Of a stretch of DNA of 64,000 nt, positions 2,444 through 56,292 are shown piece by piece. A program made the position numbers and the translations under genes. A model generated the notes under the pieces. That model saw only the letters and a list, made by a program, of their open reading frames with translations. It searched no databases and was not told where the DNA came from. Each line of letters starts with the position of its first letter. Positions within the stretch are counted from its first letter, which is position 1. The stretch lies in NCBI GenBank assembly GCA_964016885.1, contig OZ024742.1:272304001-272368000 (forward strand), given 5' to 3'. This stretch comes from Eledone cirrhosa (taxonomy: Eukaryota).

Positions 2444-2869
2444 AAGAATGATAAATTAGAAAGATTGAAGGGACAGGTGTGGTGGAATTAGAGAAAAATG
2501 TTTTCAGATAAAAATAGCAGGTTCATTTATGTTGCCTTCTCTTGGAAAACTCTAACGGTAAGAAGGTTAAGAACACATAGTCCATAAGACGAGATTTATA
2601 TAAATTGATTTGGCCGCTGTCCTTAAGAAAAGAAGTATATTCTGAGTAAATGGATTAGACCTAAGTAACAGTTCTAGAATTATATTTAAATACACAGTCT
2701 ATTTTGTATATCAAGGAAATTGGGTTCTTGAAGTTAGCTTGTAAATTTTTTTTTTTATATAAATATTTCGTATCTCCAAAGAAATACGGTTTTAGGAAGC
2801 CGTAGCTATCCAAACACCGGGGGTGGGGGCTAACGCCCTCTGGTGATGTCCAGATGAAGCAAGGAGGAC

Positions 2870-2915
2870 AACTGTCTATGCATTTCAGGTTTAACTGGCC
2901 TTCGTCAGGACGGTT
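2870..2915 (-). ncRNA. Hammerhead ribozyme, family A
   Basis: AACCGTC-CTGACGA-AGG..CCT-GAAATGCATA-GACAGTT (one stem I mismatch). Confidence 0.75.
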
Positions 2916-3198
2916 CCTCCCACCGCTTGCGACTGCTGGACTAGAAGACAGGCGAGAATATATATTTTTCTCGTCTGTGTAAATGAGGTGATTAATGACA
3001 TTTGCATATGAAACTGCATAAGTTGGCTCAACGTATAATAAAAAAGAAATAGGATTTCGCTTCAAGCATAGCTTCATACAATATGTATAAATATTTCGTC
3101 TCTCCAAAGAAATACGGTTTTAGGAAGCCGTAGCTATGCAAACGCCGGGGGGGGGGGGATATCGCTCACTGGTGATATTCAGCAGAAGAAAAGGGGAC

Positions 3199-3245
3199 AA
3201 CCATGTATGCATTTCAGGCTTAACTGGCCTTCGTCAGGACGGTCC
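3199..3245 (-). ncRNA. Hammerhead ribozyme, family A (weakened stem I)
   Basis: GACCGTC-CTGACGA-AGGC..GCCT-GAAATGCATA-CATGGTT. Confidence 0.65.
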
Positions 3246-3362
3246 CTCCCACCGCTTGCGATTGCTGGACTAGAAGACAGGCGAGAATATATACTTTTCT
3301 CGTCTGTGTAAATGAGGTGATTAATGACATTTGCATATGAAGCTGCATAAGTTGGTGGGAGG

Positions 3363-3408
3363 GACCGTCCTGACGAAGGCCAGTTAAGCCTGAAATGCAT
3401 AGACGGTT
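3363..3408 (+). ncRNA. Hammerhead ribozyme, family A (intact)
   Basis: GACCGTC-CTGACGA-AGGC CAGTTAA GCCT-GAAATGCATA-GACGGTT; palindromic stem III ATGCAT; predicted AUA cleavage after 3401. Confidence 0.88.
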
Positions 3409-3865
3409 ATCCTCCTTGCTTGTGCTGGACATCACCAGAGGGCGTTAGTCCTAACCCCCTCCCCACGGTGTTTGCATAGCTACGGATTCCTAAATCCGTA
3501 TTTCTTTGGAGATACGAAATATTTATACATATTGTATAAAGCTATGCTTGAAGCGAAATCCTATTTCTATTTTTCTTCTATTTTTCTTCAATCTTGACTG
3601 TAGTCACGCAAGAGATACCTCCCCTGATCTTACCATTTGATTAAAAAAACCAAAACAAATTCAACTAATTCTTAAATTACCTGCCTCTCTTATGATATAA
3701 TTGTGAAACGATATAACAATGAAACCCAGCCGGCCCTCCTTATTATTTTTTTTCTTTCTTATGTCAAGCTGGATTCTATCTTGAGTTAAAAACCCCAAAT
3801 AGACCCTTATAATCAAAATAGCTCAAGGAAAAAACGTTTTCCGAACCTTATAATATAATATATAA

Positions 3866-4474: not shown

Positions 4475-4638
4475 ATAGTTACAATAATTCGATTTGTAAT
4501 TCTTAATATATCCTTTTAATTGAGTCTAACAAACCGTATTATTCCTAGATAGGGTTTTCTTCACCCTGGTGGTTTAAAGTCCCTTGTGATTTGAACACAT
4601 CTATGTATATATTTGTCTTTGTCTCTCTTTAATATATG

Positions 4639-6042: not shown

Positions 6043-6167
<125 letters not shown>

Positions 6168-6287
6168 GAGGGAGAGAGGGAGAGAGAGGGAGGTATATCA
6201 CTGGAAGGTAATATCCGTAGTGGTAGAGCACTCTGTGCATGGGACGAGTTAGGTAGATTTTGTAACACAACAGTTAGTTCACCATAG

Positions 6288-6325
6288 CGAGAACAATTGT
6301 TTCACCATAGCGGATCTTCAGCTCG
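6288..6325 (-). ncRNA. Minimal hammerhead ribozyme in PLE 3' UTR
   Basis: CGAG-CTGAAGA-TCC GCTAT GGT-GAAACAATTGTT-CTCG; palindromic stem III ACAATTGT; ~170 nt downstream of the GIY-YIG stop on the same strand. Confidence 0.78.
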
Positions 6326-6493
6326 TAATGGTCATGGTTATACGAGACAGGAAGGACAACCGTATGAACGTGCATGCACAGAAACGGTCAATTCACCCAG
6401 GCAATGCAAACATGCGGGCGAGAGGTGTAAGGGAGATAACTGCGAAAGTCCGAAAGGTTCCAGTTGATAAGAACATTACGATTTTACTGTTAT

Positions 6494-7205
6494 TCAATCC
6501 AGAGCTTTGTAGTTATGTAAGAGTGGTTTCCAGAAATGTGGACAGCATGTGATGATTTCATTACTTGAGTTTAGGTAATCGCTATTGCGTAATCTCTTTA
6601 GAATTGTTATCCGTTCAACAATACATAGTCCACAAGACGGATTGCCCCTTGCATATGGATTGGACTTGGTGATGTCTTTCCATTGAATGGAATACTCTAT
6701 ACTTGAGACCTTGAGGGACCATACGTGTCTAACGAGTTTAGTGAATGATCGTGTGTCCGGGTACCTAAAGGTCGACTGATGATTCAGGAAGCGTTCCTTA
6801 AATCGGGCCTCCGCCATACGCACATAAGATTTGACATTCTGTGGTTTATTTGGTCAGTTGGAAGTGACCATAGCTTCATAAACTACAGCGGGTCTGTTGC
6901 ATTGCTGTTGGAGGGGACAAGATTTAGGCTTTCGGCAAGAGCACCCTGGTGGGATGTTGATTTTAGGGCTGTTGGTGATGTGGGCCTTCATATTCTTAGC
7001 GCAGAAGTACTCTAGTTTTAAGTGTATCTGATAAAGATGGAACGGTATTTGTGACCTATGGGAACGTGTCTATCTAAGAGGGCTAAAACTGTTTTTCTTA
7101 CATTAGTATTAATGTTGAGTGATAAGTGAGGAGAGAACCTGATAGTTTGTCTATTGTTAGGCTTTCTTTTCTTATTGCCGTTGACGTTAGTGGGAGAGTA
7201 AGAAA
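6494..7205 (-). pseudogene. Penelope-like element (Naiad-like) Cys-rich linker and GIY-YIG endonuclease, disrupted
   Basis: CSCRKPKSCPLQQQC..AVVY..YV(R)MAEARFKERFLNH..CGLC..E..LN..CCPH; one in-frame stop. Confidence 0.85.
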
Positions 7206-7209
7206 GATC

Positions 7210-7661
7210 ACAAGGTAGACTTTACTTCTAGTCCCACGTGTAGACTACTAAACGCGGCACACACGGATATTGGACTAGTCAGTAAGCCTATACTTAGACA
7301 CATAGTTAAGGCCATTAAGACCAAGTCCAACCTGTCCCAGTGGGATAATAGCGACTCCGTCATTAAGTGGTTTAAATCCTTCAAATCCAAAAAAGCGATG
7401 TTCACGCAATTCGACATTGTAGTGTTTTACCCGTCGATCTCAGAGACTCTGTTAAACAAAGCGTTGGGCATTGCTACCACTTACACTACCATCCATGATT
7501 TAGACAAGGAAATCATCGCTCACTGCCGGAAAACCCTCCTCTTCAACAACGGAGTAGCCTGGGCAAAGAAGTCAACCACCTCAAAACTATTCGACGTCTC
7601 CATGGGATTGTTTGACAGTGCTGACGTCTGCGACTTGGTTGGCCTATTTATTTTAGAATAA
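7210..7661 (+). pseudogene. Penelope-like element (Naiad-like) RT fragment, inverted relative to its 3' part
   Basis: FTQFDIVVFYPSIS..FDVSMGLFDSADVCDLVGLFIL. Confidence 0.85.
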
Positions 7662-8745: not shown

Positions 8746-8749
8746 TATT

Positions 8750-15575: not shown

Positions 15576-16744
15576 TAATGTGACAACCTAGTCATATTTA
15601 TTCATGTTTGTGATTATAAAGATGGCGATAAAGCCAAATAAGAAAATGATGAGAATTGGGTTATTTAAGATGAAGATGATCATGATTGATAATGTTGATG
15701 TTGCTGTTATTTGTCGCGTCGGTGGTGCTAAGCGTGGCGTCGATTTTGGTGGTGGGTCATTTGATGGTGGTGGTGTTGGTTCTGGTCGTGATGATGATGT
15801 TGATGATTGAGTATGATGACAGAGAATTGTGTTGTCCAAATGATGATGATAATGAGAGAGATAATGACGATGAAGATGATGGCAATGAGGCGAAGGACAA
15901 GGAAGACAATGGTGATGATGGCAGATGTTGATTTTTGTAAATGTGTTACTTAGGAAGATGATGATGATGCGGCTGGTGGATGTTGTCATAATGATACTGA
16001 TAATGACGAAAATGATGGAAGTGATTTTGATGATGATGCATTCCATAGTAATGGAGACGACGGGAGTGTAAGGAGGACAAGTGTTAGCTGTACATGATGA
16101 ATATCTAGCCATACCCAAAATAAAATCAACTCTAAACAAAACATAATCAAAATAGTAAATATCAATAGCAGTACAACCCATTACCTGACCATAATTTTCC
16201 AAGTACTATATACTTGACAAAAACATAATATATCAATAGATATGTCGAAGTGAAGAGGCCGAGTCCGCACTGTGGTCATAAGCCAGTGATTAATAGCTTA
16301 CCAAATATATGGATTGCGAAATCAGACCGCTAGCAAAACAGAATACCCAGATTGGAAATAATAACTATCACATTATCTGCACCACCGTACCACCGGCATT
16401 TAATACATACTGTTGCTTAAGTAAACTGAAAACTTCGCCAAGCTATCTCTAACTCAACAAGACCAACGCCTGAACAAAATCAACCATTGGAGGCCCTTAG
16501 CAGCGTGGTCACAAACCTTGTTCTCCATATTGTTTTACTTTCCTCAAAAGCAATTGAAACCACATGTTTTTTTTTTTAATATCCGCAAGTCGAAACCGCT
16601 GTTAAACCAAACTGTTAATATAAATACTAATCATCCATATAATGGATGCATTGATTTCATTTTCATTTCGATTGCTCCTACCTACATCTGTATACATATT
16701 CTTACAAGTGAAGTTATTCTTTTCCATTTTACAAATATACATAT

Positions 16745-17694
16745 AAATATATCAACTAGAAATTGATTGACATATATATATATATATATAAATTAACATA
16801 TGAAACAATCACAGGGAATACTTTGTAAAGTGCGTAAGCACACACAGCTAGTTAGTTAACTAATTAAAGTTTAACTAGAACTTTAAATATAGACACATTT
16901 TAAAATGATTAATCTTCCTTGTATATATGTCATTAAAGAAATATATTTCAACATCATTCGATCGGTAAATCGCAGTAGTCAAATCCGAATGTTCAGCAAG
17001 GGAGAATATTTAACTATTTGTGTTTACACAGCAAATGCAAATCTGCGAATAACTAGCGGCACGTGTTGCATTTTTTTTTAAATACACACCTCGTACCAGC
17101 GTCATCCCAGCAACATCGACAACTAGAAATAGCAACCCATTCATTTCAACTGAGTTAGCTCTACAATTAAGGGGCCGTATATATATATATATATATATAT
17201 ATCCCAAATTAAATTGAGGGTGTCATGTCCGAGAGACATGCGCCATATCCACTGTAGAATATGCTCCAAGATTCGAATGAATAGATCCGAGCATTTTATA
17301 TCAACAAGATATTGATTGACATATATATATATATCTAAAATAAACATATGAAACAATCACAGGGAATAATATGTAAGAGCGTGTGAGCACACATAGCTAG
17401 GTGGTAACTAATTAAAGTTTAACTAGAACTTTAAAAATAGATATCTTATTAATTGATTAATCTTACTTGTATATATTCCATTAAAGAGATATATTTCACC
17501 ATCAATCGATCGGTAAATCACAGTAGTCAAATCCCAGATTTTCAACAATTTTAATGTGAATACATTCAAGGAAGACTAGTCTTTTAAAAAGGTATCTATA
17601 TTTAAAGTTCTAGTTAAACTTTATTTAGTTACCTACCTAGCTGTGGTTTGCTTACACGCTTTACAAATTATTCCCTGTGATTGCTTCATATGTT

Positions 17695-17772
<78 letters not shown>

Positions 17773-17884
17773 TAAGGGTGTCATGTCCGAGAGACATGCG
17801 CCATATCCACTGTAGACCATGCCCAAAGCTCTTCCAATGAATATATCCGAGCTTTTTATATCAACTAGACATTGATTGTCATAT

Positions 17885-17981
<97 letters not shown>

Positions 17982-18731
17982 ATAATAATAATAATCAGCG
18001 ATTTTATATATAATAATAATAATAAGCAGCGATTCTTTGCTTAAACTTTAATCTGTTATTTTAATAAATATATATATATATATCAATCAATTTCTAGTTG
18101 ATATAAAATGCTCGGATGTATTCATTGGAATCTTTGAGCATATTCTACAGTGGATATGGTGCATGTCTCTCGGACATGACACCCTTAATTTAATTTGGGA
18201 TATATATATACGGCCGCTTATTTGTAGAGCTAACTCAGTTGAAATTACTGGGTTGCTATTTCTAGTTGTCGATAATCCTATTCACGCCACTGGGATGACG
18301 CTGGTACGTGGTGTGTATTTAAAAAAAATGCAACACGTGCTGCTAGTCATTCACAGATTTGCATTTGCTGTGTAAACACAGATAGTTAAATGTTCTCAAT
18401 TGTGGAAATCCGAATTCGACTACTGTGATTTACCGATCGATTGATGGTGAAAAATATTTCTTTAATGAAATATATACAAGGAAGATTAATTATTTTAAAA
18501 GGTATTTATATTTAAAGTTCTACATAAACTTTAATTAGTTACCTACCTAGATGTGTGCTTACACACTTTACAAATTATTCCCTGTGATTGTTTCATATGT
18601 TTATTTTTTATATATTATTATATGACAATCAATGTCTAGTTGATATAAAAAGCTCGGATATATTCATTGGAAGAGCTTTGGGCATGGTCTACAGTGGATA
18701 TGGCGCATGTCTCTCGGACATGACACCCTTA

Positions 18732-19589: not shown

Positions 19590-20051
19590 ATTTTAATAAC
19601 CTCTGTCATTTTCGTTCTACTAATTTATTTACATTATTCTTAACTCCGAAGCAGAGAATCATTCGGTTTCCTAAATAGAATATTAGTCTACGATTCCATT
19701 TATACCATAAGCGTGGTGTTGTGTTTGCGTGTAATTGTTCTCATCGCTCCACATAACGACGGATTATATTCGCTTTTTCCGTTCATTGCCAGGGAACGCT
19801 TCACGAACCATAGTATCGTTATCTTGTTTTCCTACGGTTGCAACGTTTTTCAAAATAATTCCTCCTGCGTTCACTGATTGATTTGTTTAGTTCCAGAAGA
19901 TCCCGTTAAAGATGAAAGCAGCAATTTTTGCTTAAGCTTTAATCTGTTATTTTAATAAATATTTGCTCTAGGGTTCTTATATAATTGATATATATTTATC
20001 CTTATATTTTTATCCTTATCTTTGGATTTTAGTCTTCACATTTATTATTAT

Positions 20052-20093: not shown

Positions 20094-20297
20094 ATAATAA
20101 TAGATTTGAGTAATTGCTGGCCTTGTGCCAAAAGTAGAAATAATTATTTGGAGCGGTGAAAACAATAACACGCGAAGACAAAACCACGTTTATGGTACAA
20201 ATGGTATAAATTAAAAGCATTTAGAAGATCTTACGCTATTATGTTTAGAGCAGTGACAGTGTCACTTACTTCAATCTTCAGCAAACAGCGGAGATAA

Positions 20298-20342
20298 AGC
20301 TGACAGAGTTCTGTTTCGACCTTGTTGGTACTTATCAAAGCT
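20298..20342 (-). ncRNA. Hammerhead ribozyme, U3-A8 core variant
   Basis: AGCT-TTGATAA-GTACC AACAA GGTC-GAAACAGAACTCTGTC-AGCT. Confidence 0.7.
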
Positions 20343-20605
20343 AAACTACTCCGCCTGTCTGCTGAAAATCATGAACGTTTGATTCTTATAGAATTCCAGT
20401 AATAATCAGCTTTTAATTAAGCATACAGTGTATTGCAAAATACACTATATATATATTCATATATATATCGCTATTTCAGAGCACCATTTCTAATTTTCAA
20501 TGTTTGCTTGACCGGCAACTGATCTGTATAATCAGTTCCTAATTATTACTGGAATTCTATAAGAATCAAACATTCATGATTTTCAGCAGAGAGGCGGAGT
20601 AGTTT

Positions 20606-20648
20606 AGCTTTGATAAGTACCAACAAATACGAAACAGAGCTGTCAGCT
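20606..20648 (+). ncRNA. Hammerhead ribozyme, U3-A8 core variant
   Basis: AGCT-TTGATAA-GTA..TAC-GAAACAGAGCTGTC-AGCT; GUC at 20642-20644. Confidence 0.75.
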
Positions 20649-20797
20649 TTATCTCCCCTGTTTGCTGAAAATTCAAGTAAGTAACACTGTCACTGCTCTA
20701 ATAACAATAGCGTAAAGTCTTCAAAAGGCTTTTAATTAAGCATACAGTGTATTGGAAAATACACTATATATATACATTATTATATGTATATATATAT

Positions 20798-20843
20798 AGC
20801 TCTGACGAATCCTACGGTTTGGTAAGGAAGAAACATTGTAAGC
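20798..20843 (+). ncRNA. Minimal hammerhead ribozyme
   Basis: GCT-CTGACGA-ATCCT..AGGAA-GAAACATTGTA-AGC; 3-bp stem I, GUA site. Confidence 0.6.
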
Positions 20844-20885
20844 CAATAAAAATCTTTTTATGTTGTAGACGCTCTTGTGTTTCTT

Positions 20886-20981
<96 letters not shown>

Positions 20982-22029
20982 ATAATAATAAATTTGAAGA
21001 ATAAAATCCAAAGGGGGCTCGATAAGGATAAATATATATCAAATATATAAGAACCGTAGAGCAAATATTTATTAAAATAACAGATTAAAATGTAAGCAAA
21101 AATCGCTGCTTTCACCCTTAACCGGATCTTCTGAAACTAACAAAGTCAATCTGTAAACGCAGAAGTGGATATTTCAAAAAACGTTGCACCCGGAGCAAGA
21201 CAGGAAGACGATACTTTGGTTCGTGGAAACGTTCGCTGGCAAAGAACGGGAAAAAACGATAATACGTCATTAATAGGAGCGGTGAAAAACAATTACGCGC
21301 AGACAGAACCACGTTTGTGCTATAAAAGAGGTCGTAGACTAATGTTCTCTTAGGTGGTTCTTAGAGACGTTCTCAGGCAATGAACGAAAAAAAACGAAGA
21401 TAAAACGTCATATGTGGAGCGCAGAGAACAATAGCACGCAAAGACAAAACCACGTAAATGGTATAGCAGAAGTCGTAGACTAAAATTCTAACTAGGAGAC
21501 CGAATGAATCTCCGCTAAAGAGTTAGGAACAAAGTAAATCAATACAATACAGAAGTAATAGAAATAAATAAATACATACACGCAAACAAATACGTACATA
21601 CACAAGCATACGCAAAACACTTACCATAGGTATACAAAGCCACGCACATATAAATATGTGTGTGTGTGTATGCGTGTATACAAAATAAATAAATAATTAT
21701 ATAAACGTATATAAATAAATAAATACGTATATAACAAGCGCACACACATACCTACATGTAAATACACGAGTGTTCGGAGACGTATGTCAACCAAACATGA
21801 AGTACACATATACGCGCACCCTACATACGTACGAACCTGCATACTCACACAGACGCAAAACTCCCGTATACACATAGCCAAACCATATGTACGAGAATAT
21901 ATAAAAATATACGCCATAACAATCAAATATACGTACGAGAAGGTATACGTAACTTCACAAAACATACGGGTAATAAATACTTACCTATGCAAATAAGTAA
22001 TGGTATAAACAAAACATATACTTAGCTGC

Positions 22030-23602
22030 CACTTTACCCTGAAGGATCACAAATTTAATTATCCGAACAACCTCTCTATTCGGCTTATTAACCCTACGAA
22101 GTCCGATTTAGGTAGACTTAGTAAAAGGATTCTTGATAGAATTATACCTTAAATTAGAAGTTTGGCCCCTCTTGCATTGTGGAACAATTCTTTCGCGGTG
22201 ATTGATTGGTTCAACGGCATATTTAACAAGGAACATTGCCGTTTTATCCAATTCGACATCAACAATTACTACTCCTCCATCACTTTACCACTTCTCCTTA
22301 GAGCTATCAATTTCGTTAACACACTCACAGTGGTTAAGGATTTCGAAGTTGGTGTCATCCTCAATGCCCGAAAGTCGGTGATTAATTTCGACGACTCTAT
22401 TTGGATTAAAAAATCCAATTGTACCCCATTCGACGTGAGTATGAGCTCCAGTGATTCTGCGGAACTTACTGATCTTATCGGCCTTTTCCTTATTTTCTCT
22501 ATCAAGGACGAATTCCCCAACGCGGGTGGAGGTTTGTATCGTGACGATGGTCTTTTGGCCATGACTAAGTGCGGACCTCGTGCTTGCGACAGGTTCAGAA
22601 AAGAACTCACAGCCTTCTTTAAAGTCTTCAACCTCTCTATACAGGTTGAGGCCAATCTCTCGTTCGTTAATTACCTCGAAGTTACCCTCAATTTATTGAA
22701 TGGGTTTATTACCCGTATAGAAAGCCGAATGATACGCTTAATTACATAAGTATGCATTCCAACCATCCTGCCAGCATAACCAAGAACCTGGTAAGAAACG
22801 TTTCGTTGAGGATTTCCCGTCTTTCCACCAACGAGCGTATTTTCAACGACCATTCCAATTATTACAATGAAGTTCTTGCTCGAAGTGGATTTGTCGATAA
22901 GGTAGCATATACAGAGTACGAAATTAGACCTAGAAGAAATAGATCCCGTCGCATTTGTTGGTATAACCCACCATATAATATGGAGGTGGCCACACCATTA
23001 GCTACGATCTTTCTTTCCCTTATTACGAAGCATTTTCCCCCTACACATAAATATAGTAAAATTTTTAATAGAAATACTATTAAAATTTCTTACTCTAAGA
23101 CTACTAACCTTGCACATAACATCACAGCTTTAAATTTAGCTAAACTACCTAGCCGTAGGAACACGTGCAACCCTGTAGTTAGTACTAACTGTAATTGTAG
23201 GAATCGGGTTGATTGCCCCCTATCCGGGAAATGCCTCTCTAGTAACATTGTCTACAAATGTAAGGTTGTAACACCCACATCCCGTAGGGCCAAATTGGGT
23301 TAACCGCCAATAGATTAGAGCAGCGTCTTTACATGCATACACATTCCTTTCGTTACCCTCTAAGAAGGAATATGACATCACTTTCAGCTTATATCTGGAG
23401 TCTAAAAGACAACCACACCCAATATAAGTTACACTGGGAGATCCTAGCTAGGGCTAGATCGTATAACGGAAATAAAAGACCATGTTACCTCTGCGCCGCT
23501 GAGGCCCTGGAAATACTCTACGCCACAGACCATATCTTAAACAAAAAATCTAAGGCAATTTCGGCTTGTAAACATAAATTGCACAACAGTTTCCTGTATT
23601 AG
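22030..23602 (+). pseudogene. PLE reverse transcriptase and GIY-YIG endonuclease (frameshifted)
   Basis: FIQFDINNYYSSI, FDVSMSSSDSAELTDLIG, LYRDDGL, WYNPPY, CNCRNRVDCPLSGKC..NIVY, CYLC..E, ACKH. Confidence 0.9.
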
Positions 23603-24550
23603 AGCCCCACGTTATACCCTAACGGATAGTACGATCTATACGTGGATATTTTACGTCTTGGTGTGGGAGCTAAGTATATGTTTTGTTTATACCATTACTT
23701 ATTTGCATAGATAAGTATTTATTACCCGTATGTTTTGTGAAGGTACGTATACCTTTTCGTACGTATATTTGATTGTTATGGCGTATATTTTTATATATTC
23801 TGGTACATATGGTTTGGCTATGTATATACGGGAGTTTTGCGTCTGTGGGAGTATGCAGGTTCGTACGTATGTAGGGTGCGCGTATATGTGTACTTCATGT
23901 TTGGTTGACATACGTCTCCGAACACTCGTGTATTTACATGTAGGTATGTGTGTGCGCTTGTTATATACGTATTTATTTATTTATATACGTTTATATAATT
24001 ATTTATTTATTTGTATACACGCATACCCACACACACATGTTTATATGTGCGTGGTTTGTATACCTATGGTAAGTGTTTTGCGTATGCTTGTGTATGTACG
24101 TATTTGTTTGCGTGTATGTATTTATTTATTTCTACTACTTCTGTATTGTATTTATTTACTTTGTTCCTAACTCTGTAGCGGAGATTCATTCGGTCTCCTA
24201 GTTAGAATTTTAGTCTACGACTTCTGCTATACCATTTACGTGGTTATGTCTTTGCGTGCTATTTTTCTCCACGTTCCACATATGACGTTTTATCTTCGTT
24301 TTTTTCGTTCATTGCCAGAGAACGTCTCTATGAGCCACCTAAGAGAACATTAGTCTACGAACTCTTTTATACCATAAACGTGGTTCTGTCTTTGCACGTA
24401 ATTGTTTTCCTATTAATGACGTATTATATTCGTTTTTTCCCGTTCTTTGCCAGCGAACGTTTCCACAAACCAAAGTATCGTCTTCCTGTCTTCCTCCGGT
24501 TGCAACGTTTTTTGAAATATCCACTTCTGCGTTTACAGATTGACTTTGTT

Positions 24551-24601
24551 AGTTTCAGAAGATCCCGTTAAGGGTGAAAGCAGCGATTCTTTGCTTAAAC
24601 T
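24551..24601 (+). ncRNA. Hammerhead-like motif with A4 core variant (CAGAAGA)
   Basis: AGTTT-CAGAAGA-TCCC GTTAA GGGT-GAAAGCA..TGCTT-AAACT; same core at 19894, ~21130 (minus) and 58797. Confidence 0.62.
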
Positions 24602-25110
24602 TTAATCTGTTATTTTAATATATATATATATATATATAAATTATAGAGGTTTACATATATACATAAACTAGACAGACACATAGATATACATATGTCCGTT
24701 TTCGCAAGCATTCACGATGTGGCTCAATGACGAATTAATTAATTTAACAATCACACTCAGAGCAATATATAAAGTAAGTCTATAGAATCATTTCGTAAAA
24801 CATATACAGTATTTCCTCTCTCAATCAGCATAATCACCACATAACAAATCAATTAAACGAGGCTATAAGTTTAAAATGTATCTATGAAGAAACAAGAGAT
24901 CAAAAAATAATAGCTATTTTATCCGCGATCCACAGCCTCAGAAGATTTACCTACTATTTCTAATAGCCCGTAGAAATTGACTAGACATACAGTTAACCAT
25001 ACACAATTAGGTACAAAATCAAAGTTAGAAGAAAATACACTGTGACCTTACGTTATTGTTATTAGAGCAGTGACAGTGTCACTTCAATTTTCAGCAAACA
25101 GGGGAGATAA

Positions 25111-25153
25111 AGCTGACAGCTCTGTTTCGTACTTTTTTATACTTATCAAAGCT
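25111..25153 (-). ncRNA. Hammerhead ribozyme, U3-A8 core variant
   Basis: AGCT-TTGATAA-GTAT AAAAAA GTAC-GAAACAGAGCTGTC-AGCT. Confidence 0.75.
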
Positions 25154-30445: not shown

Positions 30446-30450
30446 ATTTA

Positions 30451-30698
<248 letters not shown>

Positions 30699-31469
30699 TT
30701 TTGCGAGGTTTTTTATATGAAATCGTGTGTCGAAACAGATATTGTTATATTTGGGGAGGGTCATATTTGCGTAATATTGCCAGAATTAATAACAGAACAC
30801 ACTCACTGTTTGGTTGGTTTTCGCTTCTCGCTGTCTTTTATATATATATATCTGCGATCTAACTTACTCGGTCCTCAATGTTGCCATTGACTGACCGGCG
30901 GTCAAAAATAATACAGATACAATATAGACAAACACATATATATATAGTTTACATAATTTACATAAATCTTTCGTTGCACATCTGCAACATCGTCAGTGGT
31001 GTTATATTCATTGTTCCTCCTGTTGTGTTGTATGTCTACGCCATTTTTTTTTTTTTTTTTTGTTCAGTCTGTCTATATATTTATTTATTTATTTGCTTGT
31101 TTGTTTATCTTATTTTATTTTGTCTTCTTTGCGCATGCGTTTGCGTGTGTGTATAGTGTTATGTGTGATGTGTGACTAGTGTGTATAGTGTTGTGTCTGC
31201 TGGGTGACTAGTGTGTGTTTATGTGCTTGTGTATGTATTTATTTATCTTATTTTATTTATTTTATTTAATTTACTTATTTATTTATACTTCTCTTAGGTC
31301 AGTGTTGTTTGTTTGGGTGTTGTTGTTGTTCCACTCATTCTTTCTGTTTAGCTTTGGTCTTCTAATTTCTATTTCACTGGCCTCTCTGATTTGCCTATCT
31401 GCTGGGTCATTCCTATGTTTAGATATTATTCTAATTTCTATGTTGTCTATGTTACCGTCATGTTGTTGT

Positions 31470-32543: not shown

Positions 32544-32544
32544 C

Positions 32545-34552: not shown

Positions 34553-34838
34553 ATAAATAAGTAAATTAAATAAAATAAATAAAATAAGATAAATAAATAC
34601 ATACACAAGCACATAAACACACACTAGTCACCCAGCAGACACAACACTATACACACTAGTCACACATCACACATAACACTATATACACACGCAAACGCAT
34701 GCGCAAAGAAGACAAAATAAAATAAGATAAACAAACAAGCAAATAAATAAATAAATATATAGACAGACTGAACAAAAAAAAAAAAAAAAAAAATGGCGTA
34801 GACATACAACACAACAGGAGGAACAATGAATATAACAC

Positions 34839-34876
34839 CACTGACGATGTTGCAGATGTGCAACGAAAGATTTATG
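34839..34876 (+). ncRNA. Hammerhead-like core in PLE 3' UTR (mirror copy ~30960-30997 minus)
   Basis: CTGACGA-T GTTGCA GATG TGCAAC-GAAAGATTTA; strong stem II but only ~2 bp of stem I. Confidence 0.45.
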
Positions 34877-35121
34877 TAAATTATGTAAACTATATATATA
34901 TGTGTTTGTCTATATTGTATCTGTATTATTTTTGACCGCCGGTCAGTCAATGGCAACATTGAGGACCGAGTAAGTTAGATCGCAGATATATATATATATA
35001 TAAAAGACAGCGAGAAGCGAAAACCAACCAAACAGTGAGTGTGTCCTGTTATTAATTCTGGCAATATTACGCAAATATGACCCTCCCCAAATATAACAAT
35101 ATATATATATATATATATATA

Positions 35122-35958
35122 AAGTATGTACACGTACATACATATATGTATACGGACGTACAGTAGTATGTATATATATATACATACATGCACACATATA
35201 TATGTACGTATGGATTCACCGAACATTTGTTATAATGCTCGGTGTATTTGTAAACAAACATCCCGTATTAAGCCGTAGTGTCTAGCAACCATCGTTGCTC
35301 GTTTGTTCAACACTAACAAAGGAACGCTGTACTAGTTTCAAGCTTATTAGCTATCGTCAGCAACGTATACCTTCCTGACAGTTTGTTGAACGTATATACT
35401 TACCTTATGCATATTAACTGCTGAGTAGCCCAATGTGCATATCGAGTGGATTAATCGGCCGGATGCAGCGAAAACGATAAACGGAAAAAATGAAACGAAA
35501 TTTCATTTCCCACTCTTAGTACGGCTGTTACTTAAATATAAGTATGTATACGTACACGATTAACCCACTCGATATGCAAATTGGGCTACTCAGCCGTTAA
35601 TATGCATAAGGTAAGTATATACGTTCAACAATCTGGCAGGAAGGTATACGTTGCTGACGATAGCTAATAAGCTTGAAACTAGTTAAGCGTTCCTTTGTCA
35701 GTGTTGAACAAACGAGCAATGATGGTTGCTAGACACTACGGCTTAATACGGATGTTTGTTTACAAACACACCGAGCATTATAACAAATGTTCGGTCAATC
35801 CATACGTACATATATATATGTGTGCATGTATGTATATATATATACAGACTACTGTACGTCTGTATACATATATGTATGTACGTGTACAAACTTATATTTA
35901 AGTAACAGCCGTACTAAGAGTGTGAAATGAAATTTCGTTTAAATTTTTTCCGTTTATA
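35122..35958. mobile_element. Retrozyme-like family B fold-back pair
   Basis: Minus unit 35122-35556 (intact HHR 35324-35366) abutting plus unit 35560-35958 (HHR 35648-35690). Confidence 0.85.
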
Positions 35959-35999: not shown

Positions 36000-36223
36000 A
36001 ATTGAAAAAGTGGAGAATAACATTGTCAACAGTACAAAAAAGGGGATTTTTTTGAAACATGTTTCCGAAGATCCAATAGAGTTAACATCATATTTAAAAT
36101 TGAGTGGCACTGCTTTTAGTTTTCAGCAATTTTTAGACAACTCCATCAGTGAAACAATTGTTAGACTGCAAATAAATCTCCTTTTTTGTACTGTTGACCA
36201 GGTTATTCTCCACTTTTTCAATT
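36000..36223. repeat. MITE-like element / ~50-bp terminal inverted repeats
   Basis: ATTGAAAAAGTGGAGAATAAC..GTCAACAGTACAAAAAAGG at 36001 and its reverse complement ending 36222. Confidence 0.75.
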
Positions 36224-42269: not shown

Positions 42270-44690
42270 TTTCGGTCATTCCTTCTACTTCAACTTTCCA
42301 ATATGTTTCTTAAAGTTTTTTCTGTTACCATCAAGGCTGTTTTCTGCAACAATCCTGTCCCGATGGTATTTCATTGCTTCTCAAACCATGCATCCCACCC
42401 TCTACTCTCAGTGTGCGAACTCCAATCGGTAACACTTCTATGTGAACCAATCTAGCAATGTTGTCATGCCTGCCCTTGTAATCTTTCTGATCAAGCATCT
42501 TACATTCACTAATAATGTGGTTTATTGCCTCACCTTTCTCACGACATTGTTCTTTGATAGAAAGCAACTAATGCAGTCAGGTGTTTTCCTTTTTATTGGT
42601 CTTTCACAATTCCTTTGAACTGCTTGACCAATATTTTGTGCGTGCACAGGAACGAGAAAAACCAGAAATGGGACACCCTATCTCTACCATATTTCCAATT
42701 ATAAGCTTTATTGAGTGCCATAGTTGAGTCTGCTATTAAGATGTCTTCTTATACTTGGTATTGTAAATTTGTGTCGGAATTTCCAAGTGACTAATGCAAA
42801 CTACATTAGCATTAAATGACTTCTCATCATTCCAAATCTTTCTTCAAAAGTGTTCAACTTCTTCAATGGAAGGAAGGTCATCAATAACTATTTTCACTTT
42901 CCCTATTTCTCTACAGAATAACTTGGTATTGAAGGTGAACATCTTATTTAGCCTGTAGAAGTGGTTTCGCTTCTCTAATCTGCGCATTCTTTCGGACTTT
43001 ACTGGGACTTTTTGTTTCAAAGATTTGTTTGTTGATATTAGTACTTCTCTAGGTAAAATCCATATTTTCTCTTTAGCTTTCTATCCTTTCTGAATGTTTC
43101 ATCATTTTCAGTGATTAGCACATTCAGTAAAGATATTTTCGCTCCCATTAGGCGAATCACCTTTTCAATAATACTTCTCAAAATTGATTTATTTTTGAGG
43201 AGTAGAATTGAAAAGGGGATTAGAATTTTCCCAGGTAACTCACTTTCACAATTAATTTTTTGCATAGCTTTAATATCCTTTTCAACCGAAGTTCGTCAAC
43301 CCAAACTCAGTTGAATTAGATGCTGAAACAGTCATGTATGAAATTGAACAGGAGAAACTTATGAATAATTACGGATTAATAAGGGGTCTAGCATTCAGCA
43401 TGCAAGTATCAATGAGAGGGTAAAAAGGATTGTTACAGGACAGTACGCCCAGTACTGAGATCAGAACTAAATGCTCATAACAAGGAGTTAACCATAAATT
43501 ACTTGGCAGTTCCAGTTATCATTCATAGTTACGGTGTGCTAAATTGGAATATGAGTGAAATTAAAAGAAGCGACACTACAATCCGTAAGTTACTGGCTTG
43601 TAATAGGATGCACCACCCGAAAGCAGATGTGGATCGTCTTTACCTTCCGAGAACTCAAGGAGGCCGTGGACTGATCTAATTTGAACTTACCTACACGACC
43701 ACCACTATTGGACTGAACAAATACCCTGAAACAACACACGGCTGTTTGCTGAAACTCGTTGAAAACCATGAGAGACGTGAGGAGATTCATTTTATCTTGA
43801 AGGACCGCAAAAATACGCTTCTGATCTCAGGCTTGATAACCAAGTAGGACAGGCTAAGGAAACTCTTGGAATGATGCTGCTAAGCTTATGAAATTAATGG
43901 CAAAAGCAAAAGGGCAAGAACAATTATCATCAAAGTAGGAGCAGCAGCCTCTGCATGGCAAATATTTGGCCCGAAGCAAAGAAGCTGACATTGACCAAAA
44001 GCACACACATCAGTGGCTACGTAGCTCAGAGCTAAAAGCAACGTGAAAAGGCCAAGATCAAAGCTTTTTGACATGGAATTACCAGGCCAATATGATAAGA
44101 AATGGAATGAATAAAAAGTACAGATTCTGCAATGATGAGATTGAAACAAGAGGTCACTTTGTTTCTGGATGTACGATTTTAGCCCCAGTAGAATACAAAT
44201 ATAGACATGACAGAGTTAGCCAATATCTGCACTGCGTGATATGTTGACATTATAAAATCAAAGTTGCTGACAAGTGGTACAATCATCACCCTGAGGCTGT
44301 AATTGAAGGAGGAAAATTAACGTTTGTTTAGGACTATCCTGTCCATAACGACCGGACCATGAACAACTAATATACCAGATATCATTGTAAAAGACCAACA
44401 TAATGAGATCTGTATAATTATTAATATGAGCATCCCATATGATCACACTATTGCGGCAAAAGAATTGACAAGGTAAGAAAACATAAAGATCTGCTCATCG
44501 AAATTGAAAAAAAAGTGTGACACCCCAAGGCCGTTACAATAACGGTGACTGTAGCAGTTATGGGAATGATCAGGATAGGAACATAAGAGTATTTGAGAAT
44601 GGTTCCTGGTTTACCCTTTCTGCAAGATGTGCAAAACATTATTTTAACTGGTATTGAGTAGAGCACTATCTCTGTGATAATGATATACTT
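42270..44690. mobile_element. Old R4/Dong-like LINE fragments (minus 42270-43300, plus 43310-44690)
   Basis: CREKGEAINHIISECK..YKGRHDNIARLVH (minus); HPKADVDRLYLPRTQGGRGL, RHDRV, PDIIVKD (plus). Confidence 0.7.
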
Positions 44691-44819: not shown

Positions 44820-44902
<83 letters not shown>

Positions 44903-44906
<4 letters not shown>

Positions 44907-46330
44907 TATGTACACGTACATACATATATGCATACAGATGTACAGTAGTATGTATATATACATACATGCACACATATATATATTTGTACGTATGGATTCA
45001 CCGAACATTTATTATGATGCTCGGTGTGTTTGTAAACAAACATCCCGTATTAAGCCGTTGCTCGTTTGTTCAACACTGACAAATGAACGCTGTACTAGTT
45101 TCAAGCTTATTAACTATCGTCAACAACCTATACCTTCCTGCCAGATTGTTCAACGTATATACTTACCTTATGCATATTAACGGCTGAGTAGCCCAAGTTG
45201 CATATCGAGTGGGTTAATCGGCCGAGTGCACCGAAAACGATAAACGGAAAAAATGAAACGAAATTTCATTTCCGACTCTTAGTACGGCTGTTACTTAAAT
45301 ATAAGTATGTACACGTACATACATATATGCATACAGACGTACAGTAGTATGTATATATATATACATACATGCACACATGTATATATGTACGTATGGATTC
45401 ACCGAACATTTATTATAATCCTCGGTGTGTTTGTAAACAAACATCCCGTATTAAGCCGTGGTGTCTAGCAACCATCGTTGCTCGTTTGTACAACACTGAA
45501 AAAGGAACGCTGTACTAGTTTCAAGCTTATTAGCTATCTTCAGCAACGTATACCTTCCTGCCAGATTGTTGAACGTATATACTTACCTTATGCATATTAA
45601 CTGCTGAGTAGCCCAATTTGCATATAGTGTGGGTTAATCGGCCGGGTGCACCGATAACGATAAACGGAAGAAATGAAACGAAATTCCATTTCCCAGTCTT
45701 AGTACGGCTGTTACTTAAATATAAGTATGTACACGTACATACATATATGCATACAGACGTACAGTAGTATGTATATATATATACATACATGCACACATAT
45801 ATATATGTACGTATAGATTTACCGAACATTTATTATAATGCTCGGTGTGTTTGTAAATAAACATCCCGTATTAAGCCGTAGTGTCTAGCAACCATCGTTG
45901 CTCGTTTGTTCAACACTGACAAACGAACGCTGTACTAGTTTCAAGCTTATTAACTATCGTCAGCAATGTATAACTTCCTGCCAGATTGTTGAACGTATAT
46001 ACTTACCTTATGCATATTAACGGCTGAGTAGCCCAATTTGCATATCGAGTGGGTTAATCGGCCGGGTGCACCGAAAACGATAAACGGAAAAATTGAAACG
46101 AAATTTCATTTCCCACTCTTAGAACGGCTGTTACTTAAATATAAGTATGTACACGTACATACATATATGTATACAGACGTACAGTATATATATATATAAT
46201 ACGGGATGTTTGTTTACAAACACACCGAGCATTATAATAAATGTTCGGTGAATCCATGCGTACATATATATATATGTGTTAATGTATGTATATATATATA
46301 CATACTACTGTACGTATGTATGCATATATG
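44903..46330 (-). mobile_element. Retrozyme-like family B: three tandem 420-bp units plus short inverted arm
   Basis: HHRs at 45087-45129, 45507-45549, 45927-45969 spaced exactly 420; 46195-46330 inverted. Confidence 0.9.
45507..45549 (-). ncRNA. Hammerhead ribozyme, family B
   Basis: ACGTTG-CTGAAGA-TAGCT AATA AGCTT-GAAACTAGTA-CAGCGT. Confidence 0.85.
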
Positions 46331-51640: not shown

Positions 51641-52294
51641 TATATGAAAGTTAGAAGAATGAAAAATGAAATAAAGGAAACACAATGACGGTAGTAAATG
51701 CTTGGCGTAAAAATGTGCATATCATAACAACACCCACACACGCAAAATCAGACAAGTGACCAAAAAACACACATAAAAGACACGACTACACAAAGACACA
51801 CCAAATAGAATGCATGCACAAAAGCACAAGCGCAAACAGAGAAAAAAAAATAAATAAATAAAACTTTTTAGGAACACAATGGGAGGAAATTTTGAAGAAT
51901 GATAATCACTGAAAATGCTGCATATATATATATATATGACGAAAGAATTTAAGAAACTATATTTCTATTTGCACTTTTAACTGTTGGTCAACCAATGATA
52001 AATATTGATTGCCAGCTAAATTATTTATAGAAATATGAAAATATACTGAAGTGAAAACCAAACCAAAGACGTGGATGTATTTTACTATTTCTCTCTGGAA
52101 ATATTTTGAGATGCCCCCTCCTGAAATATAAAAAAATGTATGTTTCATCACAAGATTTTATATCAAAAATTTGTGAAACAAATACATCGCCCTTTAGGTA
52201 AATGAGTATATGGGAAAAAATTATCTTTTCTCTATAAACTTCACTAGATATGCACATCTCATCTACATTGTTTAATATACATAGACATATATAG

Positions 52295-52845
52295 TAAGTT
52301 TGTTTTAAAACAGCGAGCGAGATTGAAAATAGAAATAGAATAGTTCACCGTTTTTTTTTACTAAAGAAATTTCAGCCTGATAGTGGGTATAGAACCCTCT
52401 AATAAAAGGAAACAGCTGAGTATTGCCGGACATGCTAGTCAAACCCACATCTTTGGTTTTTCAGACCACTGTGCTACAATTACACTAACACATCACCCAT
52501 CTCTATATATTCAAATTAGAAGTTACATTCTTAGCAAGTATGATGAAAAGTAGGTTTGTTTTGAAAGGGTGGGCAAGATTGAAAATAGAAATAGAATATT
52601 TCACCTTTTGTTTTACTAAAGAAATTTTAGCCTGATAGTGGGTTATAGAACCCTCTATTAAAAGGAAAAAGATAAGTATTGTCGGACATTCTAGTCAAAC
52701 CCACATATTTGGTTTTTCAGACCACTGTACTACTATTACACTAACACACTACCCATCTCTATATATTCAAATTAGAAGTTACATTCTTAGCAAGTATGAT
52801 GACAAATAAGTTTGTTTTGAAAGTGTGAGCGAGTTGAATATAGAC
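52295..52845. repeat. ~255-bp tandem duplication containing tRNA-like sequence
   Basis: GATTGAAAATAGAAATAGAATA at 52321 and 52577. Confidence 0.85.
52429..52494 (-). pseudogene. tRNA-Phe(GAA)-like pseudogene (second copy 52685-52750)
   Basis: GATGTGT-TA-GTGTAATTGTAGCAC-AGTGGT CTGAAAA ACCA-AAGATGTGGGTTTGACT-AGCATGTC; acceptor, D and anticodon arms fold, 3' strand of the T stem is missing. Confidence 0.5.
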
Positions 52846-52929
52846 ATGTATAAATACGTATACACCCGACGTACCAGTTTGATTCATTGCGCCGTCCTGC
52901 TGTGACATTGGACAAATCAATAAAGGCAT

Positions 52930-54830
52930 CGTCGATAGGAATTTACCAACAATAACAGGAAAGGTTAAACTCCAGTAATGGTCCAATGCCAACGACGTGA
53001 CTACATGATTCAAGAATATTAATAATAGGAATAGCACCAATTTCATTCAACTAAACATAGTAAATTATCATGCATCCATCTCAGCTGTAATCCTAAATAA
53101 AACACTTATGTTTGTCATTAAATAAAGAGACATTACGAGAGTGGAGGTGAAATTTATTCACACAGCTAGGAAATCCGATATAGTATTTGAGGGACAACTA
53201 TGGATAAGGAAGGAAAGGCCAACTAACTTCGACATCACGATGGGATCCAGTGACTCAGCCCAAGTCACTGACTTCGTGGTATATATATACTTCAAACACT
53301 CCAGATAGAGATACAGGTCATTGGCAGTGGGCTATATCGAAATGTTGCTCTGTTCGCCTTCCTAAGCCACAGCAATAGCCATCTAGAAAGAAGGAAAAAA
53401 GTGTCTAATTCAGCTCTTTAAAAAACTAGGTAGAGAGGACAACAATAAAAGGGTAGTTAACCTAGAATCAGACCTACACTACCCATATCATGAGCCGAAT
53501 GAGAACTTAAAATATGTTAAAGTCGAATCCAACCAGCCTAAATCGGTTATTTGGGCATATGAAGCGTATCATGTTTTATAACCGCACTTTGGGCTAAACG
53601 AATCATAATCGATGACGTTTCCAACCACAAAAAAGATGCCTTAGTTAGAGCAGGCTAAAATGAAGGTACATCATACCTAAACCTAGACGATAGAAACAAC
53701 CATGCGCGAATCCAAACGTATAAACGTATCACCCACCAGCTGTGTTAGTGCAATAACAAATCGAACTATAGAATACTAACCTAATGCGAAATAAACTAAC
53801 TAGGGCAACAACCATGCCGAAACGGGGGAAAGGTGGCTACCAGGAGCATAAACCCCTAAGCGAAAATCCCAACTCCACTCGACTTAGAAAACCACCAGAC
53901 GCCCTAAAGAATGGACCTGAATCTGGAGACCTCAAAGGTCATAACAACTCCGAACCTGAAGTGGAGCCTAGCAGACACCGCAACAACAGATCCAAGGAAT
54001 CCAATAAAAAAGGAAAAGATATTAGTCCAAGAAAAGGTACAAGAGCCAGTCCCATGGATAAATCGTGGTATAAGCCTCCATACTGCACAGGATTACGCAA
54101 TAACTTAGTCTCCCAATTATTTAAAATACTAGACATATCCTTTCATATGATTTCTATAGACATACTATCAAAATGTCTTACTTAACGACTATAAACCTAG
54201 CTCAGAATATAGAAAGAATAGACAAGGATAGAATTAGACAATTACGTAAATTTACTAAAGTTGATAATTTAGTAGAACAACAGCTCAAGATCCAGCAAAA
54301 GCTTTCCCACGTGGCTGACCATACCCGGATTAACCCAGGGGCAGCAACCGCATGATCAAGCGGTACAACGGGCAATCCGGAACTTCTATGTGTACTAACG
54401 CCATGGAGAACAGAACATGCAACTCTAGTACTGCCACCTCATATTCAATAGAAGGGACTTGCCTATCCGAAACATAGTTTATGAATGCAAGATTAGAAGG
54501 AATGATATAATATACACCAACATGGGTGCTACGGAAACAAAATTTAAGGAAAAGCGATATAAACATGTCCATATATTGAAAAGAATGGAAAAGAGTAACA
54601 ACACGACTTTCCCGGAAATAAAAGACACGGAGTATACACTTATTTGATCCTATTTCCAATCAGCTTCCCGTATGCGGGGTGCGATGTTACGCCTGTCCCT
54701 TGTGTACCACGGAAATCATGTAGATAATAAAAAGAGGACCATCGATGATAAATAAAAGGCTGGACCTGATTGACAAGCGTCCTCACCGACACACCAAAAC
54801 CTTCCTGAGGAGATACCGCATGTCGACACC
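52930..54830 (+). pseudogene. Naiad-like PLE RT/GIY-YIG, heavily decayed
   Basis: NFDITMGSSDSAQVTD, WYKPPY, NIVYECKI..MGATETKFKE. Confidence 0.78.
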
Positions 54831-55239
54831 TCTCACTATTTGTGCATTTCCTATACCCATATCATCGGAACCACGCAACTAGGATAGATTAACAGAAGTC
54901 TTCCACATCAGTGCTACTCCTTTATAGATAATCTGTATATACCACCTTACGCACACACTCACGGCAGTGCCGCAATATCTTCATTCAACACTTCTTTAAA
55001 CATTGTCATGTATTAATCTCCCGGTTGCATCCCAAACTGTCCCTGTTATGTTTGCAACCATCCACATGTATAATATGCATTATAATATGTTGAGTTATGC
55101 AATATAATCAATATAGCTACTGTAATGACAAAAACTATGCCCACTGGCGCATATATGAGGATACAAATGCCTGCATACATCATTGGATGTAAATGCATAT
55201 GTATATGTTAGTTTTTGTGTATATACATATGTATATATA

Positions 55240-56292
55240 TAAGTATGTATACGTACAAACATATATGTATACAGCCGTAGAGTAGTATGCATATATATAC
55301 ATACATGCACACATATATATATGTACGTATCTTTTTTACCGAACATTTATTATAATGCTCGGTTTGTTTGTAAACAAACAAACATCCCGAATTAAGCCAT
55401 ACAGTGTTTAGCAACCATGGTCGCCCTTTTGTTCAACACTGACAAAGGAACGATGTACTAGTTTCAAACAGACCGAGCATTATAATAAATGTTCGGTAAA
55501 AACGATACGTACATATATATATATGTGTGCATGTATGTATAAATATACATACTAATGTACGTCTGTATACATATATGTATGAACATATACATTACTTATA
55601 TTTAAGTAACATCCGTACTAAGAGTGAGAAATGAAATTTCGTTTCATTTTTTCCATTTATCGTTTTCGGTGCGCCCAGCCGACTAACTCACTCGATATGC
55701 AAATTAGGCTGCTCAGCCGTTAATATGCATAAGGAAAGTATATACTTTCAGACGTTCATCAACTGGCCGGAATGTATACAATGCTGACGAGAGCTAATAA
55801 GCTTGAAACTAGTACATCGTTCCTTTGTCAGTGTTGAACAAAAGGGCAACGAATGTTGCTAAAAACTGTACGGCTTAATTCGGGCTGTTTCTTTGTTTAC
55901 AAACAAACAGAGCATTATAATAAATTGTTTCTATTTTTAGGCACAAGGCCAATAATTACACAGTGCATTACTGGTACTTTATTTTATCGACCCCGTAAGG
56001 ATGAAAGGCAAAGTCAACCTCGGCAGGGATTTGAACTCAGATCGTAAAGGGACGTAACTATGCTGGAAAGCATGGCGTCCGGCCCTCCACCGATACTGCC
56101 AATCCACCTTGGCATTATAATAAATGTTTGGTAAACACGAAAAGTACACATATATATATATATGTTTGCATGTGTGTATATATATACATACCACTGTACG
56201 TCTGTATACATATATGTCTGCACGTATACATACTTATATTTAAGTAACAGTCGTACTAAGAGTGAGAAATGAAATTTCGTTTCATTTTTTCC
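55240..56292. mobile_element. Retrozyme-like family B fold-back, interrupted by a SINE
   Basis: Minus arm 55240-55466 breaks inside the HHR; plus arm has HHR 55778-55820 (ACAATG-CTGACGA-GAGCT AATA AGCTT-GAAACTAGTA-CATCGT). Confidence 0.85.
55926..56111 (-). mobile_element. tRNA-derived SINE with 14-bp target-site duplication
   Basis: GCATTATAATAAAT at 55912-55925 and 56112-56125. Confidence 0.9.

Follow-up and report, generated by a model that had tools for sequence, protein, structure and literature searches.

A shared head-to-head insertion layout of coding Penelope-like elements and non-coding hammerhead units in a 64-kb window of Eledone cirrhosa

Coding Penelope-like elements (PLEs) and short units that have a hammerhead motif and no open reading frame (ORF) lie together in a 64-kb stretch of the Eledone cirrhosa genome (contig OZ024742.1), which is AT-rich animal DNA (37% GC) and is called the window here. 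Both kinds have the same arrangement: two copies meet head to head, their unequal 3' ends point outward, and these ends mostly lie on TA runs. This common layout indicates that one PLE reverse transcriptase (RT)/GIY-YIG enzyme likely inserted both kinds, and PLE mobilisation of the ORF-less hammerhead units is very probable. An earlier note on this DNA had proposed that the PLE enzyme inserts the non-coding units, and this is well supported by a one-sided tail, by recurring 3' ends, and by comparison with a control family resembling short interspersed nuclear elements (SINEs); polarity contributes less. The observation is stronger than first stated, and the ORF-less families add to the known kinds. 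The evidence comes from this single window and an indirect read test.

The coding PLEs are C (30694-35102), D (20979-24619), and J (approximately 6190-7661). The ORF-less families are A (unit 328 nt), B (unit 420 nt), and E (unit approximately 320 nt), and family B has three inverted loci, B35 (35118-35957), B44 (44901-46330), and B55 (55238-56294).

Polarity, one-sided tails and recurring 3' ends

Inverted pairs were found by self-BLAST of the window, and sense was fixed separately by ORFs or hammerhead cores. C and D have plus-strand RT-endonuclease frames in their right arms. In families A, B, and E the type I hammerhead motif reads minus in the left arm and plus in the right; two short B arms without a full core were oriented by homology. 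The left arm is the minus-sense copy and the right arm the plus-sense copy, with 3' ends outward, at all eight loci named in the earlier note, as it had claimed. An adjacent inverted copy truncated at its 5' end stands head to head at 7/7 two-armed loci, and 6160-7661 has the same polarity. The one-sided chance of this polarity is 0.004 for eight of eight loci and 0.031 for the five non-coding loci, and the eight loci derive from few families (three non-coding and three coding). Within families of defined sense, no tail-to-tail junction was found in the window.

Some particulars needed correction. At 6160-7661 (J) the polarity is right, but the right end at 7661 is an internal ORF position by a fragment of a long interspersed nuclear element (LINE) and not a 3' end, and it lies about 500 nt upstream of the left-arm start; for these reasons J shows polarity only. 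The fold-back placed at 30741-35101 is real, but its true start is 30694, a 45-nt tail having been overlooked. Polarity was also correctly read at 44903-46330, where the arms are unequal (3.1 tandem units on the left, only 134 nt on the right), and at 55240-56292, where the right arm also contains a SINE-like insertion. The description "mostly bounded by (TA)n" fits 10 of 14 outer ends (counting (TA)n of at least 6 nt) but neither end of 2758-3570. Finally, "one insertion rule" is accurate as to the shared layout but not universal. Fold-back is frequent (five of the eight non-coding hammerhead loci), and it is not universal because single-arm copies of the same families exist at 30039-30451, 25044-25211, 58932-59114, 19623-20050, 58628-58918, and 18025-18067.

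When outer ends are aligned in sense, one 3' end is 27-92 nt longer than the other at six of the seven two-armed loci. The extension is 45 nt in C, 92 nt in D, 41 nt in A, 27 nt in E, 61 nt in B35, and 56 nt in B55. It is the known Penelope "tail", common to coding and non-coding units; it is a sharper mark than polarity, and the earlier note had overlooked it. At even odds, six mixed long/short pairs out of six have a chance of 0.016, a figure that does not include B44.

The 3' ends fall at two recurring positions per family. In family B the short end lies at the same motif in three loci and the long end recurs in three, including a solo copy. In family D the long end recurs at 20050 and the short end at 18067. 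In A, B, and E, the predicted hammerhead cut precedes the 3' ends by approximately 90-270 nt, suggesting that copying began inside the RNA and not at the cleaved end. Placement of short 3' ends in hairpin loops was considered and rejected; 13-48% of AT-rich positions also fit. Target site duplications would be masked by (TA)n, and by eye none is evident at A, E, and B44. The 5' starts at 30039, 35557, and 58932 and the read joint at 45654 are just behind the long 3' end position; such starts, about one unit length from the start site, would be expected after a single pass round a circular template or from an RNA with a fixed start. Between 30039 and 35957, PLE C lies between a solo copy and a fold-back of family B, with nothing but (TA)n separating the three; one microsatellite received repeated insertions, which sets 3' ends of different families tail to tail.

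The SINE-like family, so labelled by its size and a duplication of approximately 14 nt, has no adjacent inverted pair among 12 copies, compared with five of eight A, B, and E loci (Fisher p = 0.0036). The arms of each fold-back also resemble each other. B35 arms share one private variant, and four B44 pieces share another. Divergence between the two B55 arms is 7-12%, whereas from other loci it is mostly 12-19%, and D arms differ by 3.9%, compared with 14.5-17.7% to two longer D fragments elsewhere. These locus-private variants indicate single insertion events.

A hammerhead descriptor scan of the window gave 13 matches scoring at least 18, compared with 0-1 per block shuffle (n = 8), and found a type I motif in each A, B, and E unit. 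Pairing holds in 93.9% of cells of the family B helices, and a single change is two-sided; this level is reached by 28 of 500 shuffles, so covariation is weak. Rfam had no match in the window at the gathering score (family E matched only HH9, at E 4), and Rfam E-value scans of three stretches returned chance microRNA-type matches on TA repeats. Folding energy was significant only for family E (z -4.5) among eight hammerhead regions, and no locus matched the A or B hammerhead in metagenome scans.

Family B was followed in other data with a permuted unit (45480-45900), which was compared with contigs from run X1 and with raw reads from reduced-representation libraries of three further samples. 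It recruited 67,907, 64,388, and 57,254 reads of approximately 12.5 million each, or about 0.5% of reads. Five opposite-strand joints were present among the best 15 of 34; every one of them occurs in the three raw runs, and X1 lacks all five. Joint polarity comes from modelling of fragments and is not given directly by the reads. Because ends fall at AATT sites and first mates lie near one CATG site, two library enzymes were inferred; given these enzymes, four joints yield a fragment cut by a different enzyme at either end only if they are head-to-head. For the first joint the modelled side length of 40 equals that observed, and the other three need an extra AATT of a second subfamily. Modelled visibility of head and tail joints was 0.17/0.11 and 0.05/0.09 for the two subfamilies, so bias between joint kinds is small. 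At 45719, the short end, nineteen X1 contigs pass from the unit into a TA-rich flank. Pile-ups of reads at 45615/45618 and 45682/45685 were rejected as element ends; they lie at AATT sites and were taken as library cuts. The unit is near-palindromic at 45854-45873, and inverted arms start nearby in two window loci and three read joints; this position is a possible junction hotspot.

Route of insertion and alternative explanations

Priming from both ends of the target break, as the earlier note suggested, is the best mechanism for this layout and is probably the route. It fits the biochemistry in PMC11167929 and the structures of C, D, and B35, but a fold-back trimmed on one side gives the same product. 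The ORF-less units would be transcribed as multimers or circles, as the fixed B junction and arms of up to 3.1 units suggest. The protein would then cut both strands of AT-rich DNA, and the RT would start inside the RNA at two nearby sites (PMC11167929), consistent with two recurring 3' positions per family. One break end would prime at the distal site and keep the tail, while the other would prime at the proximal site and have none. The truncated 5' ends of the two copies would be connected, almost or entirely without overlap, leaving a head-to-head junction.

Junctions and arm contents bear on this route. Overlap is 2 nt at A, 1 nt at E, 0 nt (blunt) at B35, 6 nt (TA) at B44, and approximately 9-16 nt at B55; it is unmeasurable at C and D without another copy, so that it is 0-2 nt at three of the five measurable named loci. 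An untrimmed fold-back is excluded at C, D, and B35, where both arms contain sequence without a collinear counterpart in the opposite arm. Loci A, E, B44, and B55 do not discriminate between priming routes.

Several observations weigh against insertion by a PLE enzyme with two-ended priming. The shorter arm is nested within the longer at A, E, B44, and B55, and the overlaps at B44 and B55 are what self-priming would require. B44 has no long/short pair, its right arm stopping approximately 22 nt early at a non-TA flank, and the long ends of A and E are each known from only one or two copies. No sequence link of A, B, or E to any PLE in the window was found. In vitro, the start site was equal between strands (PMC11167929), which leaves the strict long/short pairing unexplained by that work. 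Among the read joints, the fifth (45725/45725, side 38) fits a tail-to-tail joint at the short 3' end, the resulting 4:1 ratio of head-to-head to tail-to-tail joints is not significant, and the window's own three B junctions are absent among the best 15 of 34 joints. Three further inverted pairs (16735-17686, 17775-18729, and 24765-25786) are of undefined sense and were left out of the polarity count; they could be counter-examples. They obey the polarity rule if their TA-abutting ends are 3' ends, an argument that is circular.

What the ORF-less units are is a question compatible with either priming model. It is possible, although doubtful, that A, B, and E derive from autonomous PLEs outside the window as their terminal repeats, inserted in truncated or multimerised form or locally amplified; the conclusion on the enzyme would stand and become trivial. 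ORF-less solo fragments of coding PLE D do occur in the window. Opposite-strand hammerhead pairs 100-700 bp apart have been described as probable truncated PLEs in PMC4209133, where the U3-A8 core variant seen in family E is also reported, and local amplification of a PLE terminal repeat has been proposed (bioRxiv 10.64898/2026.07.22.740005). The units are short and head-to-tail in all three families (B 420 nt, at most 3.1 units; A 328 nt, 1.8 units; E approximately 320 nt, 1.15 units). The unit junctions of A and of E are each present only once, so these two families may be such terminal repeats. Family A also has a 120-codon stop-free frame (2760-3119, minus strand) that spans nearly the whole unit and is reached by 35 of 2000 shuffles; in B and E, stop-free frames do not exceed those of shuffled sequence. 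However, the A frame is broken in the two other long copies and has no homolog among longer proteins. It may be due to chance, to overlap with a PLE ORF, or to a once endless frame on a circle. The A unit of 328 nt is one base off a multiple of three. A terminal-repeat identity is also opposed by family B, whose tail-to-next-unit junction is identical at five places in three loci and two subfamilies, a pattern that local amplification would not give. Read depth is flat over the B long end (X4: 1267/1687 compared with 1292/1664), so spanning reads come mostly from ORF-less tandems, and this end is absent among the best 24 of 937 loose ends.

The second alternative keeps the same enzyme with one priming event, in which complementary DNA or antisense RNA (PMC3846280) copies itself by fold-back and the endonuclease trims one end. 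It is unlikely, although it yields head-to-head polarity directly and agrees with the nested arms at A, E, B44, and B55, with the longer overlaps at B44 and B55, and with private variants common to both arms. The tail has been attributed to endonuclease-mediated resolution (PMC8557442), and junction palindromes have been described (PMC3846280). Without trimming it fails at C, D, and B35, and with trimming it requires loops of approximately 740 nt (C) and 1630 nt (D). The overlap of 0-2 nt at A, E, and B35 weighs against it, the long end is also found on solo copies, and with two RT start sites no trimming is needed to account for the tail.

We consider it very unlikely that the pairs arose by DNA-level inversion through fold-back repair at AT-rich repeats or by independent insertions into one TA run, with units moved by a LINE or other enzyme. 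The (TA)n tract is self-complementary, LINE fragments are present in the window, and the pair 17775-17890/18614-18729 is identical at 126/126 positions between long TA runs, where other copies differ by 9-14%. However, such events predict neither the polarity bias nor the one-sided tail. The junctions are exactly inside element copies with no TA spacer except the B44 overlap, and the SINE-like family has 0/12 fold-backs. That the inverted arms are assembly or library chimeras is hardly credible even though neither a contig nor a long read was seen to cross a window junction and X1 contigs show none of the five listed opposite-strand joints, as arms differ by approximately 1-12% and also in length and end position, and identical B fold-back joints recur in raw reads of three other samples.

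Under two-ended priming by a PLE enzyme, a tentative model is that a dimeric Penelope protein would give the two adjacent internal start sites of one circular or multimeric retrozyme RNA to the two sides of the chromosome break, one to each. If true, the dimer model would explain the inversion, the strictly one-sided tail, and retrotransposition of a circle that has no free 3' end, and the tail would be a general tag for any RNA carried by the Penelope machinery. The pairing of one long with one short end also bears on how PLE inverted structures form. The enzyme that spreads animal retrozymes has so far been argued from co-occurrence and phylogeny; a PLE-specific footprint on ORF-less units is an independent and cheap enzyme test that can be used on any assembly. 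Because exact expected RNA start positions are named here, trans-mobilisation can be tested in an existing in vitro assay.

Elements and other inverted structures in the window

In PLE C, the left arm (30694-32546, minus) is an inverted 3' ORF part with the 3' untranslated region (UTR), and its 45-nt tail (30694-30738) lies on (TA)n. The right arm (32547-35102, plus) has a 5'-truncated ORF with RT, thumb, zinc linker, and GIY-YIG regions, and its short 3' end is on (TA)n. The arms are identical at 1793 of 1805 aligned bases. In PLE D, the left arm (20979-22032, minus) consists of the 3' UTR in inverted orientation and ends on (TA)n with a 92-nt tail (20979-21070), and the right arm (22033-24619, plus) has a 5'-truncated, frameshifted RT-thumb-endonuclease ORF, a 3' UTR that contains the hammerhead-like core at 24556, and a short 3' end on (TA)n. 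An older solo 3' fragment of family D (19623-20050, plus) has the same long 3' end, also on (TA)n. The left arm of J (approximately 6190-7173, minus) contains a decayed thumb and GIY-YIG region and a 3' UTR with a hammerhead-like core at 6321; its outer end abuts (GA)n/(TA)n. The right arm of J (7180-7661, plus) is an RT fragment.

Both C and D have an RT followed by a C-terminal GIY-YIG region in one ORF. For C this is supported by a weak RVT_1 match (E 0.0018), a YIGET motif in the ORF, and Atlas clusters with GIY-YIG and RT domains; its best protein match is an Octopus vulgaris RT-domain protein (67%), and comparison with PDB gave a single weak RT match. D is assigned from motifs, tblastn to J and M, and Atlas. 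Pfam did not find GIY-YIG in C or D. Linkers were compared with two patterns, CX2-5CxxC with CCHH and the Hydra CxCX5C; by eye, the C motif appears Neptune-like and the D motif Hydra-like (CxCX5C). C has a minimal hammerhead motif at 34841 with a long helix II and a weak helix I. The hammerhead-like core of D has A instead of U4 in 4/4 covering copies (24556, 21130, 19900, and 58808), so the D master element may carry a variant or dead ribozyme. Two more plus-strand PLE remnants are at 52850-54900 and 61640-64000, the second running past the window edge; one is related to D and J, one has a Pfam GIY-YIG match, and no inverted arm was detected at either.

The family A fold-back has a left arm (2758-3355, minus) of 1.8 units with a type I hammerhead core at 2908 and the short 3' end outermost. 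Its right arm (3354-3568, plus) has a core at 3370 and a 41-nt tail (3528-3568) without a (TA)n flank. A solo A fragment (58932-59114, plus; core at 59062) has its 5' start just behind the tandem-unit tail position. In family E, the left arm (20209-20409, minus) has a hammerhead with a U3-A8 core at 20338 and a short 3' end, and the right arm (20409-20764, plus; core at 20610) has a unit of approximately 320 nt with a 47-nt terminal redundancy and a 27-nt tail (20738-20764) followed by (TA)n. A solo E fragment (25044-25211, minus) has a core at 25149. Directly after the E insertion is a weaker second hammerhead-like core (20802-20845, plus) that has no family match in the window.

Family B has one solo copy (30039-30451, plus; core at 30131) of a subfamily with an 8-nt insertion; its long 3' end is on (TA)n and it has no inverted partner. 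The left arm of B35 (35118-35556, minus) has 1.05 units, a core at 35360, and a short 3' end on (TA)n, and the right arm (35557-35957, plus) has a core at 35654, a 61-nt tail (35897-35957), and a long 3' end on (TA)n. The left arm of B44 (44901-46202, minus) has its units head-to-tail, with cores at 45123, 45543, and 45963 and a short 3' end on (TA)n; the right arm spans 46197-46330 (plus). In B55, the left arm (55238-55467, minus; 231 nt) has a short 3' end, and the right arm (55459-56294, plus) has approximately 1.5 units, a core at 55784, and a 56-nt tail (56239-56294) on (TA)n. This right arm is interrupted at 55926-56111 by a SINE-like copy that has a duplication of approximately 14 nt.

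Other inverted structures lie outside these families. A fourth ORF-less tandem family at 16735-18729 (unit approximately 548 nt) has two fold-backs and a one-sided extension of approximately 45 nt. No clear hammerhead was found in it, only a core short of one base, and it may be a ribozyme-less or decayed PLE passenger. Within it, the pair 17775-17890/18614-18729 stems from recent local duplication in inverted orientation, from conversion, or from an artefact of assembly. At 24765-25786, inverted 270-nt arms (87%) with TA at their outer ends enclose the E fragment and approximately 300 nt of other sequence, and a third 47-nt piece lies beyond a TA run. No hammerhead was established in this pair, which is either a miniature inverted-repeat transposable element or a PLE-type fold-back. 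Small imperfect hairpins (71-86%) at 36000-36223, 43155-43221, and 56785-56837 were assigned to no hammerhead or PLE family.

Comparison with known systems

In LINE-1 twin priming, two primers from one break produce an inversion whose 3'-ward ends both face out; the second primer anneals at an internal position, and overlap between the arms is absent. Window arms differ in that they start at terminal sites and overlap widely at seven loci; only 6160-7661 resembles twin priming.

Insertion units of PLEs with an endonuclease (EN+) are much closer. Head-to-head is the most frequent PLE arrangement, with a tail optional on one inverted repeat, and terminal repeats can carry unrelated sequence in trans (PMC3846280). 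An inverted truncated copy, a one-sided tail of 30-40 bp, and (TA)n targets are described for PLEs in PMC8557442, as are non-autonomous Chlamys elements. The window shares with these units the head-to-head inverted truncated copy, the one-sided tail, a hammerhead or hammerhead-like motif in the terminal region, and (TA)n targets that would mask target duplications, and C and D fit directly. It differs in that the footprint is also found on ORF-less tandem units and in tails of 27-92 nt instead of 30-40 bp.

Purified PLE protein (Poseidon PAc, from Anolis) cuts AT-rich DNA and extends both strands in vitro, and its RT begins at two internal positions, which delimit the genomic tail (PMC11167929). 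Both properties agree with the window, as do 3' ends away from the hammerhead cut. In that work the start does not depend on the strand, whereas window ends pair one long with one short at 6/7 loci. A start-site stem-loop like that of Poseidon PAc was not above background in the window loci.

Metazoan retrozymes without long terminal repeats are the closest counterparts of the ORF-less units. PLEs have been named strong candidates for mobilising retrozymes (PMC7229834), and the PLE-retrozyme case has been made from co-occurrence and phylogeny (bioRxiv 10.64898/2026.07.22.740005). In a term search of the latter, "tail" was absent and "inverted" occurred only in a reference; the accessible portions of PMC8969392 and PMC8490949 contain nothing on insertion footprints. 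A literature search that covered few subscription papers turned up no study in which the enzyme was identified from footprints that ORF-less hammerhead repeats leave on insertion. Like the retrozymes described in PMC7229834 and bioRxiv 10.64898/2026.07.22.740005, window families have head-to-tail units of approximately 320-420 nt, a type I hammerhead, in A and B a short helix III whose loop is palindromic, no ORF that appears conserved, co-occurrence with PLEs, and high abundance (family B at about 0.5% of reads). For the window units, expression, circular RNA, and self-cleavage are predicted features. The published PLE case, in its accessible parts, draws on co-occurrence, shared hammerheads, and phylogeny and not on footprints. 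The advance is incremental, as every ingredient is already published for PLEs; the link between PLEs and retrozymes is in print, and the insertion footprint adds a modest new argument for which enzyme mobilises these units.

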